From assembly GCA_958009085.1 (NCBI GenBank), contig OY253685.1:496001-560000 (forward strand): DNA of 64,000 nucleotides, given 5' to 3'. Source of the stretch: Protoeuglena noctilucae (taxonomy: Eukaryota). Position 1 is the first letter of the stretch, and each line of letters starts with the position of its first letter. Positions 22,808 through 29,196 of this stretch are shown one piece after another. The notes below the pieces were generated by a model, which saw only the letters and a list, made by a program, of their open reading frames with translations, was not told where the DNA came from and did no database searches. Made by a program: the position numbers and the translations under genes.

Positions 22808-23076
22808 TATGATCGGGGGCGTTTAGTAAGAGCTGGGGCTTGTTAGTAACGGGGTTTGCACGTTGCCTGTCGCCGGCTCTAGTGCACTCTCCATTGAAAG
22901 CTTGTCGTGACTTTTGAACAACTGGCTTCGGTACAATGGGAGTGGGATTGCGAAACGACAGGTTCTGGTGAATCGTCACCAACTGTGCTGCTGGAGCTGC
23001 TGGGGCGGGGTGTCTGTCCTACAAACTGCACAAGTGGCATACATGCATTGGCATGCATTTGTACGGAGCAGTATCG

Positions 23077-24342
23077 TCATCCCGACGTGTATGACAAGGG
23101 TACTTGGACCAAAAGGAACACATTGAGGGCCAGGATGATGGCGATGACGACCCAAGAGATGATTGACAGCGTGCGACTGTTGCGGAACGCGCCCATGTGC
23201 TTTGCGCTCCCCGTGAAGTGGCATATGGGTATGACGACCACCGGGAGCGTCAGGGACAGGAAAACCTGGCTCAGCACTGCGGGGGCGGGCGTGTGGGTAG
23301 CTGACTGGCTGTCCCACTTAGTGACTCACCCAGTAGTGTGTTGCACCCAGTGTAATAGCGTATGGACCTCTGCAACTGATTCATAGCGCATTGCAACCCT
23401 TGCAACTAATGACTCACCCAGTAGCGTGTTGACGGCCTTGTCCCCCGCCAGCCCCGCCACGAGCGCGGCCGGCACGATCGACAGCAGGCGCGTGGCCAGC
23501 CGCCGCACCCAGGGCTTCAGCCGGAACTCCGTGAACCCCTCCATCACGATTTGACCCGCGAGGGGTGCCCGTGATGGTGCTGCTCTGGCCCGATGCCAGC
23601 AGCCCGATTGCGAAGACCGTCGACGCGGCGCGATCACCGATGGACGGGGAGAGAAGGTGGTAGGCGTCCGCAATCCCTGCAAAAGTGCAGATCAACACAG
23701 GGGTGCGATGGGGGGGGGTGGGTGGAATGAGATCAGGGCGTGTGGGGCAGTGTTGATGATGTGAGTGGGGCGAGCTCGAGGGCGCCAAGTCGACAGCATA
23801 CGTCAATGAGTCCTGTAGACGGTGCGAATCCAGGTAGTGCGTTAATGCTTTAAGTAGCTGCTTTACCACCACATCATGGCTGCCATGGTACCGTTTGGTT
23901 GCGGCAGCGTGTGCGCATCTCACCGGCCACGCTTGTGTTGTCGGTGCGATAGTGGAAGGCGGTGGCGGCGACGGCGAGGATCATCGAGTTGATGAAGAAC
24001 GCCAGTCCCAGGGACAGGTTCGAATCCCAGGTGCCGAAGCGAATGGCGTGACGCTTGCCCTCGGTGGTGCGGGGGTAGGCGTGTGACGTGGTATCGAAAC
24101 GTGCTGTGGTGTACCATCACTATATATACAATGAACGCGGTGCGCTCGGCACACGGGGCGCACCTTCCGTCCATAGCGATGGGCGCCTTCTCCACAGCCT
24201 GGTCCAGGGTGTTCCCGCCGGGAGTGTCCACATTGTGCCACGTGGACGGCAGCGACGACAGCCAGTCCTCTGGGTCGACCTCTGCCACGGTTGCATCCGA
24301 GCTCTCGTCCTCGGCTCGATGAGACTTCAACCAGCTCGCCAT
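23077..24342 (-). pseudogene. NRAMP: NRAMP/MntH-family metal transporter, truncated and frameshifted
   Basis: C-terminal half is clear ([64 protein letters not shown]). An extra C at ~23562 (GGCACCCCTCGCG) shifts the frame inside the transport motif. TM1-6, including DPGN and MPHN, were not found between the presumed first exon (24342-~24163) and ~24080. Confidence 0.8.
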
Positions 24343-25243
24343 CGCGTGCCAGGCGCGCGCCCAGCGGCACCCTGCAGCGATGCAAGGGTGGGGGCTGATG
24401 CGAGCGGCGCCGGACAGCTTAGCCATGACCAGGCCGCGTTAACAACATGCTAATATTGCAGCGGGGTGGGGAAGGAATTAGCCAGGGTTGCGTGCCCCCA
24501 TCTGCACGCTGCCGAGGCTGAGATTGCGCGCGCCGCCTGGCAGCCACTTGACGGCGCAGCTGGGCACCCGCTCCGAGACGTCTTCGAATTGCACTGCGCC
24601 AAAGTCAATCGCAGTTACCTTGCTGCGCTTGACCGCGTGAATTCGAGAATTATCTTGATTACCTTGCTCCGAGGCCAATCGGGAGTGTGCCCTGCAGCCT
24701 CTTGGAGCTCTAACGACGCGGCATGCTGCGCTGTTGTGTAAGCAGAGCCAACTCTCCTTCAACTTGTCACCCACGGGGGGCTCGAGCGTGTCGCGCGCCT
24801 AAGGCGCGCTCAGAGCACACGCTGCGCGTGTGCCGAGCGGATGGCTCGAGTCGCTGCACGATTCGCGGGGAAAATGACACTTTCACGACAAATATCATCA
24901 TTTGAACATGATATTGTCTCGGGAACGTCATGCATACTCCCCATCGCGCGTCTTGGGGATCACAGTGTGCGCGTGAGGAGCAGGCCGCGTCGCTCGTCGC
25001 ACCCCGCGGCCATCTCGACATCAACCCACCACCTTGACTCTCTGCTACATGTAGCGCGACTCTCCGTGCAGCAAGCGGCGCAATCCAAGGATCGGCGGGC
25101 CCGTGTTCTGGCAATTTATGTTCACTGGCGCCTTTTGAACTCGCCACCTGTCAAAATCTGCCCATATATTTCACAGTAGTCTGCGTGATGGGCTTGCATG
25201 CGAGTAGGCAGCTAAACCTCTGAAAGCAGGGCCTGCGTTTGCC

Positions 25244-26197
25244 ATGCGCCTCGAGGTCCGCGGCCTGGCAAAGGACCACGCCGGGCAGGCTATCTTCCGC
25301 GATCTCTCGTTCAGCGTGGAGGAGGGGCAGGCAAGGATTCCCTCCTTTCGCCCAGCGATCCTGCGGCGTGAACATAGTGTGGGATTTGCACGGGCCGCTC
25401 CCGGCGCAGCGGCGACGAATGTTGACAACCACGTGTCCCCGATCTCCTTCAATGCAGATCCTTTTCATCACCGGGCCCAGCGGGACGGGGAAGACTACGC
25501 TGTTGAAGTGTTTGGCGTGCTTGGAGGCCCACCAAAAAGGGGACGTGTTTCTGCGAGGGAAGAGCGCGTCCTCGTTACCAGTACCTCAGTGGAGAGCGGA
25601 GGTCACGTACGTGCTGCAGGTGGGTGTCGTCCGCGCTTCCCCGCGGCCCCGACGGCGCACGAGGCACCTGTGCGCGGCACACGCCCGCGGGGACGCGGGG
25701 CGCGTTTCTGCCGGCAGGGCACGCCCGCCGGCTTCGTTTTCCACCAACGCATTGCGATAATGTCCGATCGCATGCCCGTCCCGCAGGCGCGCGTCGACCA
25801 TCCCGGGAATCCGCAGTCGAGCCTCGCCAAGGCGCTGGCGTTTAAGGCCCAGGCCGCGAGGCAGGTCCCGCGCGGCGACCTGCTTTCTCTGGCGGAGTCT
25901 CTTGGACTCTCCAAGCAGCTGCTGGAGCGCGACTGGGTGCAGCTCTCCGGCGGGGAGGCGCAGCGCGCGGCCCTCGCCATCGCGCTGGCGCTCAACCCTC
26001 AGGTTCTCCTGCTGGACGAGCCGACGAGCAGCTGCGACGAGGCGAGCGCCAAGAAGATCGAGGCGGCCGTTGCTGGCTTCGCGCGATCGTCCCGCTGCGC
26101 GGTTGTGTGGGTGACGCACAACCCGGAGCAGCCGGGGCGCGTCGGGGGCGAAATCCTCCGCCTCACGCCGCTCCACGGGGCGTCGTCCGCCGTGTGA
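25244..26197 (+). CDS. Stand-alone ABC ATPase, FetA(YbbL)/STAR1-like (ABCI), 3 exons
   Basis: Exons 25244-25330, 25458-25619 and ~25787-26197. Walker A GPSGTGKT, PQWRAEVTYVLQ, signature LSGGEAQR, Walker B LLLDEPTSSCD, H-loop WVTH. No TM domain. Confidence 0.88.
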   Translation: MRLEVRGLAKDHAGQAIFRDLSFSVEEGQARIPSFRPAILRREHSVGFARAAPGAAATNVDNHVSPISFNADPFHHRAQRDGEDYAVEVFGVLGGPPKRGRVSAREERVLVTSTSVESGGHVRAAGGCRPRFPAAPTAHEAPVRGTRPRGRGARFCRQGTPAGFVFHQRIAIMSDRMPVPQARVDHPGNPQSSLAKALAFKAQAARQVPRGDLLSLAESLGLSKQLLERDWVQLSGGEAQRAALAIALALNPQVLLLDEPTSSCDEASAKKIEAAVAGFARSSRCAVVWVTHNPEQPGRVGGEILRLTPLHGASSAV

Positions 26198-26203
26198 GCA
26201 ATC

Positions 26204-27963
26204 ATGGCGGACTCCGGCGCGGTCGCGGCCGACGTGACCCTGGTCGCGGTCGGCATGTCGGCCGCGGCGCTGTGCTGCAACCTGGTCATCTCGAGTGCGC
26301 TGCGGCTGAGCCTCAACGCCAAGTACCTGGTCGCGGGCGTGCGGTGCATCGCGCAGCTGACGCTGCTGGGCGCGGTGCTGAAGCCCATCCTCGAGCAGCA
26401 GCAGCCGTGGATGGTGTTTGGCTGGATGGCCGTCATGTACATGGCGTCCACCATGGGTGAGCTGAGCGATGATCACGAGGATGTCGATGGCACCATGTCT
26501 CAGCACCAATTGCAACGGCTAGGTTGCCATCTCATATGTCACAGTAACAGTCTGCACGTGTGTTGTCCCTTTGTAGACCCTGACCCTGTCTGCACACGCG
26601 TGCCCCCACCCGTCCACCTCAACCACCCTCGCCCACCCTCACCCCCACCTCTCCCACCCCTCCTGCAGAGGTGATGGGCAAGGTCAAGCACACGTACCAG
26701 GGCATGACGCTGCACATGCTGTGCCTGCTCGTGACGGTCACCATCGTCATGCTGGTGTACGAGACGGGCGTCGTGCTTCGTGTGAAACCCTTCTGGGACC
26801 CCCAGTACGCTCTGCCGCTCCTGGGCATGCTGCTGGGCAACTCACTGTCCGCCGTCACGCTCTCGGTTGGGGGGCTGCTCGGGAGAGTGACGTCGAATAA
26901 GGCACGGTGAGGAGGAGGGTTGGCTTGGAGGGGTGACAGCGAACACAGCTTCGTGGGGCAGGATACTCTTATTGCATTCCCCATGCGGTATTTCTAGCGG
27001 CATTGCCCTGCGCTTTCATCTCCCTGACACACTGCGACAATGCGACACATCACCTGCCCTCCCGTGTCTCGCAGCATCGAGGCCGACCTGGCGATGGGCG
27101 CGTCGCGGTGGGAGGCCCTGGAGGAGCACATCCGCGACACGCTGACCCTGTCGCTCATGCCCGCCCTCAACTCCCTCTCCGTGTCGGGACTCGTGTCGAT
27201 CCCGGGCATGATGACCGGGCAGATCATCGCAGGCAAGTGCTTAGACCGGGCATGATGACCGGGCGGATCATCGCAGGCGAGTGTCACGGTTGGAGAGCAT
27301 GGATACCACGACTGACTATGCATTGTGGTGACACGTATGTCGAAGCTGTTGGCGGCGCCCGGCACGTCTGCCTGTGACCAGCCTCGTCACCCATCCCATC
27401 GCTCGCCCGCAGGCAACTCGCCCAACCAGGCGGCCCGGTACCAAATCATGGTGACGTTCCTCATCGCGGCGGCCGGGTCGACAGCGGCTGCCATCGGGTC
27501 CCTTCTCGCAGCCGTGCAAGCGGTGGACACGGACCATCGCCTGACCCTCCACAAGATCACGTGAGCGGCGCATCGCTGCGGTGGGCAACACGCTCCCTCC
27601 ATAGGCCCTGTCATCGCCTCGCCGTGTGCGCGGTGGACACCTTGTAAGCATTGCACCCTGGGTTGCGTTCGCATGGAGAGCAAGACCTGACTTGATTTGG
27701 GAGTCTCCGTGGCTATCGTTTCTATCCTTCGCAGGAAGAACCAGGGCAGTTGGACTCTGGAGAAACTGATCGACACGGCGCTTCTGACGGCGTGGCGCGG
27801 GGCAGTCGCCGCGGGGCAAGGGGCCGCGGCCCCGTTCCTGTGGCTGTTCCGGGCCGCGTGCGCGCCGCAGAGGGAGGCGCCGCGGGCCGGCGACGAGGCC
27901 CGGGAGGGTCTCTTGGCGGCCGACGGGGCGCAGGGCGGCAACGGGGCCCCTCGAGACGAGTGA
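26204..27963 (+). CDS. UPF0014 ABC permease, FetB(YbbM)/STAR2/ALS3-like, 5 exons
   Basis: RCIAQLTLLGAVLKPI, WDPQYALPLLGMLLGNSLSA, IEADLAMGASRWEA, SLMPALNSLSVSGLVSIPGMMTGQIIAGNSPNQAARYQIMVTF. Last exon ~27734-27963 joins in frame. Confidence 0.9.
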
Positions 27964-28206
27964 TGCAGGAACTTGTGCGTGTGATACCGACGCTGTCAGC
28001 GGGCTGAATCATGTTACTTGTGCGAATGGCGAGGCGACAGGTTTGAAACGCAAGGCTTGGTCCTGCAAGCGCTGGGCGGAGCACGGCTACTGTGCACAGC
28101 GCCTCCTGAAATGCCCAAACAGGATGCCAAAGCAGCGCCCTGTTCCCTAAGGACTCTCATAACACCAAGCGGGTCACGGCAAAGACGGAAAGCAGTCCCG
28201 CTGCGC

Positions 28207-28546
28207 TCAGTTGTAGTACATCTCAAGGCCCATGCCGTCGTGAATCTCGTAGTCCTGCGAGCGCGGGCCGGCGAAGACGTCTTTGAGCAGCAACCAAGTC
28301 AAACTATCGCCTTGAAGCCGCGACGCACGCCGCGGACCGCCCGGCGCGGGCGGCGCGGCCAGCGAAGCACACCTCGAGCGTAATGTGGTCCTTGTAGACC
28401 GTGTACCACTTCTGGATCCGAATCTTTTCCGGCCTCGTGCCCGTCTGAGCTGCCACGAGCTTCTTGAGGTCCCCAATCGTGTCGTCCTCGTTGCACTTGA
28501 CGCGAATCTTCTTTCCCAGACGGTCGTTCAGGACCACCTCAATCAT
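28207..28546 (-). CDS. UBL5: Ubiquitin-like protein 5 (Hub1), 2 coding exons
   Basis: [58 protein letters not shown] / [15 protein letters not shown], with the diagnostic C-terminal YY. Confidence 0.97.
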
Positions 28547-29196
28547 CGCGACCTGAGGCAGCGAGGGCACGGCGGCGGGTCAAAGAGGGTCGTCTTACCG
28601 ATGGGAGCGCCCTGCGACAGGCCCACGCCGCGGCGCTGAGTTGCGAGTGGCAGCGCCCTTCCAGACCCCATCGCGTGGCAGCCCTGGGCAGCCCTTTGTG
28701 AAGCTCATGCAATGCCAGCATGGCAGAATACCATGCCACGTGACACGGGCGCCCTCTCTCGTACCTTCCCGCAAACAGGATTGGGGGTCTCCCGGTGTTG
28801 CGTAGGCCCCGCGCCGGCTCGGGGACGTGTCTGCACGCGGACGCCGGACGAGCGACGCAGGCGCGCCATGTAGACCCCATGGTGGGCCAGAGAGGGGGAA
28901 ATGGGGCTCAGGTTGCCCTGCCAGTCGTCCCCTTCTGGCGCGATGTTGCCAGCGCGCGGCTGGGTGAAAGCTGAGGGCTGCGATGTCTGCTGCGTAGTAC
29001 TGGTACATACACACGTCGTCACCTGCCCCCACACCAGACGCGCTAGGTCGATTGCACCCCCACGAGCGTGCAGAGCAGCAGGGACTGCATCGCTTGGCTT
29101 CCGCAAGTGACCTACCGGTACAAGAGAGGACACTGGGAACGTCAGCGGCCGGTTGTGACACTGAGCTCGTCGCTTGGGCTCAGGGCGTAGGGCGCC

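Follow-up and report, generated by a model that had tools for sequence, protein, structure and literature searches.

How can a eukaryotic nucleus express two genes that lie on the same strand only six nucleotides (nt) apart? The question is raised by a locus in a stretch of 64,000 nt from the marine alga Protoeuglena noctilucae (NCBI GenBank assembly GCA_958009085.1, contig OY253685.1, positions 496,001 to 560,000 of the forward strand), which is called the window below and is numbered from its first letter. The locus consists of an ABC ATPase gene (open reading frame 1, ORF1) followed by a gene for a membrane permease (ORF2), and an earlier note, made from the sequence alone, had described the two as an operon-like pair similar to bacterial fetA and fetB. 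We conclude, with a probability of about 0.68, that the locus is one transcription unit yielding a bicistronic mRNA, on which ORF2 is reached by leaky scanning past the start codon of ORF1. This reading is favoured because of the 6-nt spacer, the RNA contigs spanning the junction, the lack of further AUG triplets in ORF1, the contexts of the two start codons and a published precedent in Auxenochlorella.

Read directly from the window, the plus strand at the junction runs ...GCC GTG TGA GCA ATC ATG GCG..., with the ATPase stop codon TGA at 26195-26197 and the permease ATG at 26204-26206, on the same strand and in the same frame. These positions agreed with the earlier note, as did those of the ATPase ATG (25244) and of the end of the final permease stop (27963), and its point that no space is left between the ORFs for a polyadenylation site or a promoter also held, since a spacer of just 6 nt cannot accommodate a terminator and a promoter. 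Agreement in frame between ORF1 and ORF2 is expected by chance in 1 of 3 cases. That the genes for both subunits of one transporter should lie 6 nt apart, and in the order found in bacteria, is not a matter of chance.

To delimit the exons, public RNA was used. A search for sequencing runs returned four metatranscriptome runs, all from one study, that contained 54-56% of the sampled words (approximately the exon fraction), and DNA runs that contained 100%. Contigs from three of the RNA runs (X1, X2 and X4) and from one DNA run (X5) were compared with positions 24000-29000. All six intron joints were present in the RNA contigs and none in X5, confirming that both ORFs carry spliceosomal introns (two of them in ORF1 and four in ORF2), as had been claimed. 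The spliced ATPase ORF comprises 660 nt and encodes 219 amino acids (aa), and the permease ORF encodes 341 aa. The features of the unit are listed here, AUG1 and AUG2 being the start codons of ORF1 and ORF2.

25127-25243, plus strand: 5' leader; RNA contigs begin at 25127 (X2), 25188 (X1) and 25200 (X4) and do not fix the true start position
25188 and 25198, plus strand: upstream ATGs in the leader, opening short upstream ORFs (uORFs) whose ends, by inspection of the letters, lie at 25223 and 25215, before AUG1
25244-25330, plus strand: ATPase exon 1, start context tttGccATGc
25331-25457, plus strand: ATPase intron 1, GC-AG, 127 nt with 2 ATG; joint 25326>25454 (both=4), of which only the +4 placement gives GC..AG
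25458-25619, plus strand: ATPase exon 2, with Walker A (GPSGTGKT), from RNA joints and Pfam
25620-25786, plus strand: ATPase intron 2, GT-AG, 167 nt with 2 ATG, from an RNA joint
25787-26197, plus strand: ATPase exon 3, with the LSGGE signature, Walker B and H-loop, ending in TGA at 26195-26197, from RNA joints and Pfam
26198-26203, plus strand: inter-ORF spacer GCAATC, 6 nt, from the window sequence
26204-26456, plus strand: exon 1 of the FetB/UPF0014-like permease, start context caAtcATGg
26457-26668, plus strand: permease intron 1, from an RNA joint
26669-26906, plus strand: permease exon 2, from RNA joints and Pfam
26907-27074, plus strand: permease intron 2, from an RNA joint
27075-27232, plus strand: permease exon 3, from RNA joints and Pfam
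27233-27412, plus strand: permease intron 3, GC-AG; joint 27227>27408 (both=9)
27413-27560, plus strand: permease exon 4, from RNA joints, with Pfam just below threshold
27561-27734, plus strand: permease intron 4, from an RNA joint
27735-27963, plus strand: permease exon 5, spliced on in all three RNA runs
27964-28060, plus strand: 3' untranslated region; RNA contigs end at 28028 (X1) and 28060 (X4), directly next to, or overlapping with, the 3' end of a minus-strand gene that converges on the pair

Domain searches bore out the assignment of the two products to a FetA/FetB-like pair. Pfam ABC_tran matched ATPase exons 2 and 3 with 40.5 and 39.7 bits (cut-off 25), and UPF0014 (PF03649) matched permease exons 1-3 with 45.7, 50.2 and 65.8 bits (cut-off 22.6), covering profile positions 3-204 of 242; permease exon 4 gave 20.2 bits over positions 207-237, just under the same cut-off. 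The ATPase motifs GPSGTGKT (Walker A), Q83 (Q-loop), LSGGE, LLLDE (Walker B with the catalytic Glu) and VTHN (H-loop) fall in conserved alignment columns, and a database protein called independently on a 2378-nt contig (P0123) is identical to the spliced 219-aa ATPase. The best NCBIfam model for the ATPase was 'iron efflux ABC transporter ATP-binding subunit FetA' (NF007601), with 133 bits vs an equivalog cut-off of 292, so that, judged by its sequence, the window ATPase is classed as FetA-like and not as a FetA equivalog. For the permease exons the best model was FetB (TIGR00245), the exons submitted singly scoring 21.6, 34 and 19.8 bits vs a cut-off of 410, and because of this match UPF0014 was taken as the FetB family. 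The fifth permease exon supplies a 76-aa tail rich in Ala, Gly and Arg, with no family match. When the PDB was searched with a bacterial FetB-like protein, no solved chain matched at E<=0.01, and the matches to the ATPase were generic ABC domains only. In rice, the nucleotide-binding domain (NBD) protein STAR1 and the UPF0014 permease STAR2 reportedly work as one transporter.

Is the junction itself retained in mature RNA? Each of the three RNA runs has a contig that spans 25783-26455, and with it the stop, the spacer and the permease start, free of joints, and both ORFs were found fully spliced on one contig in X1 (25188-28028) and in X2 (25127-28550). No base differences from the window were reported in the four runs (three RNA, one DNA), indicating that the TGA is not a sequencing error of the assembly, a possibility which the earlier note had raised.

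The same contigs bear on the proposal that the main product of the locus is a fused half-transporter, joining the NBD to the transmembrane domain (TMD), made either through readthrough of the UGA or through removal of the stop by splicing. ORF1 and ORF2 are in frame, as such a product demands, and the TGA lies within GTGAGC (26194-26199), the donor hexamer that is used at 26457 and 27561. Natural fusions of the same order also exist: a search with the junction read through (TGA=X) found NBD-linker-TMD proteins in Rhodosorus marinus (P0002, 590 aa, matching 96% of the query at 30% identity) and in an MMETSP transcript (P0125), besides fusions in the reverse order, TMD-NBD (P0003, P0055 and P0089, about 597 aa). 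These fused eukaryotic half-transporters contain the same two domains as the window pair, but in a single ORF uninterrupted by a stop and, in the P0002/P0125 order, with some 70 aa of linker; no such linker is found here. They are real fusions, and the third possibility named in the earlier note, a fusion or fission intermediate, may be considered beside them. An intron that removes the stop was not observed, since a junction joint was absent from each of the three RNA runs and no RNA contig used the GTGAGC at 26194-26199, and a splice from 26194 to the next used acceptor (26669) would delete 475 nt and shift the frame. The idea of UGA readthrough, put forward in the earlier note, found no positive support either: the base following the UGA is a G, which fits none of the readthrough contexts known to us, the ATPase ends where its homologues end in the alignment, and the fold downstream of the stop is ordinary. 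A well-placed AUG opens ORF2, and position 3 of the UPF0014 profile aligns at residue 15. Structure-driven readthrough was rejected in view of this unremarkable fold (z -1.37, with 23 of 200 shuffles folding as well). A fused protein as the main product is thus highly improbable.

How, then, would ribosomes reach ORF2 on a bicistronic mRNA? Spliced ORF1 contains no ATG in any frame beyond its start codon, and the spacer likewise contains none, so the 666 nt that separate AUG1 from AUG2 on the mRNA are free of AUG. Mononucleotide shuffling of ORF1 gave a mean of 6.07 ATG, and zero was reached in 4 of 3000 shuffles. Across the window, whose G+C content is 57-69%, ATG averages 1.5 per 100 nt per strand. 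The two introns of ORF1 itself contain 4 ATG in 294 nt (Fisher p=0.009 vs ORF1), the six introns taken together have 17 in 1028 nt (p=0.00025 vs ORF1), and ORF2 holds 17 ATG, all of them in frame. The context of AUG1 is G(-3)/C(+4) and that of AUG2 A(-3)/G(+4), which, judged by the general rule and not by a species consensus, makes AUG1 middling and AUG2 optimal; this fits the general rule published for green-algal bicistrons. The latter are marked by ORFs lying close together, by a start codon of ORF1 in a weak context and by AUG depletion before ORF2 (PMC11892635; Duenas et al. 2025, PNAS), and mutants of A. protothecoides described in the same work yielded less ORF2 product when the ORF1 context was strengthened and more when it was weakened or when the start codon was removed, as leaky scanning predicts. 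A short inter-ORF distance, AUG depletion and, by the general rule, an apparently weaker context for ORF1 than for ORF2 are shared by the window pair and the exclusively polycistronic loci of green algae (PMC7896298, PMC11892635).

In the mechanism that we propose, a nuclear transcription unit extending from about 25130-25200 to about 28030-28060 would be transcribed and its six introns removed. Part of the scanning 40S subunits would initiate at AUG1, in its middling context, and produce a FetA/STAR1-type ABC ATPase (219 aa), and the remainder would bypass AUG1, scan the 666 AUG-free nt and initiate at AUG2, in its optimal context, to produce a FetB/UPF0014-type permease (341 aa). The ratio of the subunits would be set by one promoter and by the strength of the AUG1 context. 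We infer that the locus gives a single transcript only, that both ORFs are translated and that the ATPase and the permease join to form one transporter, whose substrate would be a metal or something related.

A number of observations weigh against leaky scanning on a single mRNA, and the first concerns the AUG depletion. Shuffling the order of the codons gave P(0)=0.14 and synonymous shuffling P(0)=0.22, and an out-of-frame count of zero is ordinary for a Met-free protein; because both codon-level shuffles often give zero, the depletion signal is mostly the absence of internal Met (0 in 218 residues). In favour of leaky scanning, internal Met is absent from the window ATPase and from its four most similar full-length relatives, P0242, P0243, P0244 (Helicosporidium) and P0129; of all 119 homologues examined, 19 are without it, and the mode is 4 Met in 107 length-filtered rows. 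Against it, Met-free homologues turn up sporadically in fungi. The purine at -3 of AUG1 means that it is not clearly a weak start site. Moreover, a transcript starting at or before 25127, as the X2 contig does, has a leader with two ATGs (25188, 25198) and is not AUG-free before ORF2; this point is softened by the reading of both uORFs as ending ahead of AUG1. The ORF1 stop lies upstream of four exon junctions, a position that in many eukaryotes invites nonsense-mediated decay. ORF1 is also long, its 660 nt being about twice the published median of 291-357 nt for ORF1 (PMC11892635).

The fungal Met-free ATPases were found in Termitomyces (3 of the 3 listed), Entrophospora (2 of 2) and Polychytrium (P0265, P0278, P0306, P0263, P0264, P0298). 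Taken at face value, these sequences suggest that a bicistronic layout could occur in fungi too.

The remaining adverse points concern the RNA. Assembled contigs cannot prove a single molecule, as overlapping transcripts would assemble identically, and every RNA run comes from one study. The X4 assembly, furthermore, breaks inside ATPase exon 3, into a 5' contig (25200-25643) with a depth of 6.4 and a 3' contig (25943-28060) with a depth of 25.2, and this break and depth step fit either a 3' bias or a second start site inside ORF1. Two overlapping monocistronic mRNAs might therefore have been merged in the contigs, with the permease start site located in the last ATPase exon and the ATPase mRNA ending within the permease gene. 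The 4-fold step in depth near 25643-25943 is what such an arrangement would give, and contigs do merge overlapping transcripts, the X2 contig extending into the convergent neighbour gene. Nevertheless, a start site inside the last ATPase exon needs no AUG-free first 400 nt of ORF1, nor the same feature in relatives, and the corresponding A. protothecoides locus was selected for having both ORFs exclusively on one Iso-Seq transcript (PMC11892635). The only plus-strand TGTAA of the locus, the chlorophyte poly(A) motif, lies in the last permease intron (27643); with 41 copies vs 34 expected, TGTAA shows no enrichment in the window, and its position is uninformative. We consider two separate mRNAs unlikely. 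Of the proposal in the earlier note that a bicistron co-expresses both subunits, the bridging of the junction by contigs in all three RNA runs, the AUG-free ORF1 and the published Auxenochlorella pair speak in its favour, the evidence for its single transcript being short-read contigs.

The chief rival on the same bicistronic mRNA is translation of ORF2 mainly by termination and reinitiation, with ribosomes ending at the UGA and restarting 6 nt further on, in a manner comparable to bacterial coupling. The stop-to-start gap of just 6 nt has the look of coupled translation, and a similar spacing was met in metagenomes, which were scanned by means of an alignment of the closest ATPases and a generic Walker-B motif pattern. 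The 80 intron-less loci obtained were only distant relatives (26-39% identity), none of them an algal relative with gene context. A FetB-like frame was present in 14 of the 80, which provided an operon baseline, and in these 14 its start lay within -8 to +7 nt of the stop, under a nearest-start rule that itself favours small gaps. Seven of the 14 showed the 4-nt overlap ATGA/GTGA, and one (L013) had a spacing of +6, in frame. The discussion in PMC11892635 leaves some reinitiation possible and mentions working Chlamydomonas transgenes with a six-nt spacer. However, reinitiation was disfavoured by the results with mutants of A. protothecoides, and the spacer of the corresponding pair in that alga is 147 nt long (PMC11892635). 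Reinitiation, besides, would purge AUGs near the stop only, yet the whole 660-nt ORF1 is free of them. We regard reinitiation as the main route to ORF2 as improbable, about on a par with two separate mRNAs, and retain leaky scanning as the preferred reading.

The closest precedent is a curated, exclusively bicistronic Iso-Seq locus of Auxenochlorella, UTEX250_A04.07340/07335, which appears in the supplement of PMC11892635 (Datasets S1B, S2B and S5). According to Dataset S1B, its ORF1 (UTEX250_A04.07340.1) spans 729 nt, encodes an ABC ATPase and contains no internal AUG in or out of frame, where 6.8 would be expected, and its ORF2 (UTEX250_A04.07335.1) is a UPF0014 protein, with a 5' untranslated region of 16 nt and an inter-ORF distance of 147 nt. 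On the basis of these table entries, and not of the sequences, the two loci are alike in having an ABC ATPase followed by UPF0014 on the same strand, an AUG-free ORF1 and an ORF1 shorter than ORF2. They differ in the spacer (6 nt, in frame, here vs 147 nt), in the length of ORF1 (660 vs 729 nt) and in the evidence for a single transcript, which consists of short-read contigs here and of Iso-Seq there. Dataset S2B, whose coordinates mix coding-sequence and transcript ranges, gives the pair as colinear in Prototheca cutis, Chlorella sorokiniana (with PacBio support), C. vulgaris, Nannochloris desiccata and Coccomyxa, and its Chlamydomonas column has no entry for the pair. The locus type is thus already catalogued in print, in the supplement only: the main text of PMC11892635 gave no word matches for 'ABC transporter' or 'UPF0014' and never mentions the pair, and a literature search that included PMC11892635 and PMC9812998 found this gene pair as a bicistron in no main text, only in the supplementary rows of the former. 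By word search, UPF0014 was absent from the supplement of PMC7896298 (Gallaher et al. 2021), where a different ABC pair, with an ABCI11-type ATPase, is present. The sole pair of subunits found named in the main text of PMC11892635 is REX1S-REX1B. Unlike the green-algal polycistronic loci in general, the window ORFs encode obligate partners of one ABC transporter.

Where does such a pair come from? Among the best 120 matches to the window ATPase, the named homologues were from Helicosporidium, many fungi and Porphyridium, the nearest being that of the trebouxiophyte Helicosporidium (47% identity), and none was a land-plant protein. Because no land plant occurs among these 120, orthology of the window ATPase with STAR1 is doubtful, and 'STAR1/STAR2-like' should be read, at the level of sequence, as membership of the same family and not as orthology. 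The plant STAR1/STAR2 (ALS3) system also consists of a half-size NBD and a UPF0014 permease acting as one transporter (PMC11528361), but the plant genes are separate. The same review holds that chlorophytes are without ALS3/STAR1 orthologues and that streptophytes probably obtained theirs by gene transfer from soil bacteria.

A tree of ATPases was built by a quick method from 62 hand-picked rows, comprising the window protein, its nearest unnamed matches, one row per named genus, the NBDs of four fused proteins and 11 operon loci (all 14 except L074, L008 and L020). The window ATPase came out as sister to P0127 (Shimodaira-Hasegawa-like approximate likelihood-ratio test, SH-aLRT, 83) within a group of 13 rows (88), and loosely with Porphyridium and the Helicosporidium clade, apart from the metagenome operon rows; support was weak, and this 62-row tree fixes neither a lineage nor an origin. 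With the bacterial fetA-fetB (ybbL-ybbM) operons the window locus shares the order of NBD and then permease, a near-zero spacing and the best NCBIfam models (FetA and FetB), and it differs from them in being a nuclear locus with six spliceosomal introns, sub-equivalog scores, no ribosome-binding-site coupling and the 76-aa permease tail.

A possible, though doubtful, history would be that a bacterial operon of the fetAB type entered an early algal nucleus as a unit and was never separated in some red and green algae. The order and the 6-nt spacing would have been kept while introns were gained, coupled translation would have given way to leaky scanning through the purging of AUG and Met from ORF1, and other eukaryotes would have fused the genes, in either order, or separated them. 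If true, the family would be a natural series of an operon becoming eukaryotic, and its bicistronic form might, to judge from the sporadic Met-free ATPases of fungi, extend further again.

Several details of splicing at the locus were also recorded. Two of its six introns (25331-25457 and 27233-27412) are GC-AG, both with the donor GCAAG and both confirmed by RNA joints. A 38-nt segment made up of the last part of permease exon 3 and its GC donor (27202-27239) recurs 44 nt downstream, inside intron 3 (27246-27283), with 95% identity. A contig of low depth in X4 (27271-27435) extends from the second copy across the remainder of intron 3 to exon 4, as would be expected of either unspliced RNA or splicing at the duplicate donor. 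Retention of the last permease intron would lead to a stop TGA at 27562-27564 and a protein of 266 aa, ending about where the FetB profile ends.

The pair is flanked by two genes on the opposite strand, with the following features.

23080-24720, minus strand: divergent upstream gene, in which parts of an Nramp domain lie at 23080-23980 (profile positions 237-357) and an RNA contig extends to 24720
24371-24617, minus strand: intron of the divergent upstream gene, from an RNA contig
28035-28800, minus strand: convergent small gene with introns 28254-28371 and 28551-28762, from RNA contigs

The Nramp pieces of the upstream gene correspond to the C-terminal third of the metal-transporter domain and lie head to head with the FetAB-like pair; the N-terminal Nramp motifs DPGN and MPH were not found in 23000-24800. 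About 500 bp may serve as a common promoter region for this Nramp-type gene and the pair. The RNA contigs of the convergent gene start at 28035-28041, where those of the bicistron end; the two abut or overlap within some 30 nt, and in X2 they are merged.

Altogether, the locus belongs to a known and published kind of bicistron, and what sets it apart is chiefly the 6-nt in-frame spacer, the tightest layout possible, together with the fact that its ORFs code for both subunits of one transporter. It probably represents a natural eukaryotic case in which both obligate subunits of a membrane transporter come from one mRNA, their ratio being probably set by the strength of one start codon, and it extends to a marine alga a locus type that had so far been recorded, for trebouxiophytes, in supplementary tables only. 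It also bears on the claim, made in a review, that chlorophytes lack transporters of the ALS3/STAR1 type (PMC11528361), as trebouxiophytes and the window carry a UPF0014/ABC pair, although these are probably not orthologues of the plant proteins. Together with the fused forms found elsewhere, the pair offers a testable system for the adaptation of bacterially acquired operons to eukaryotic translation.

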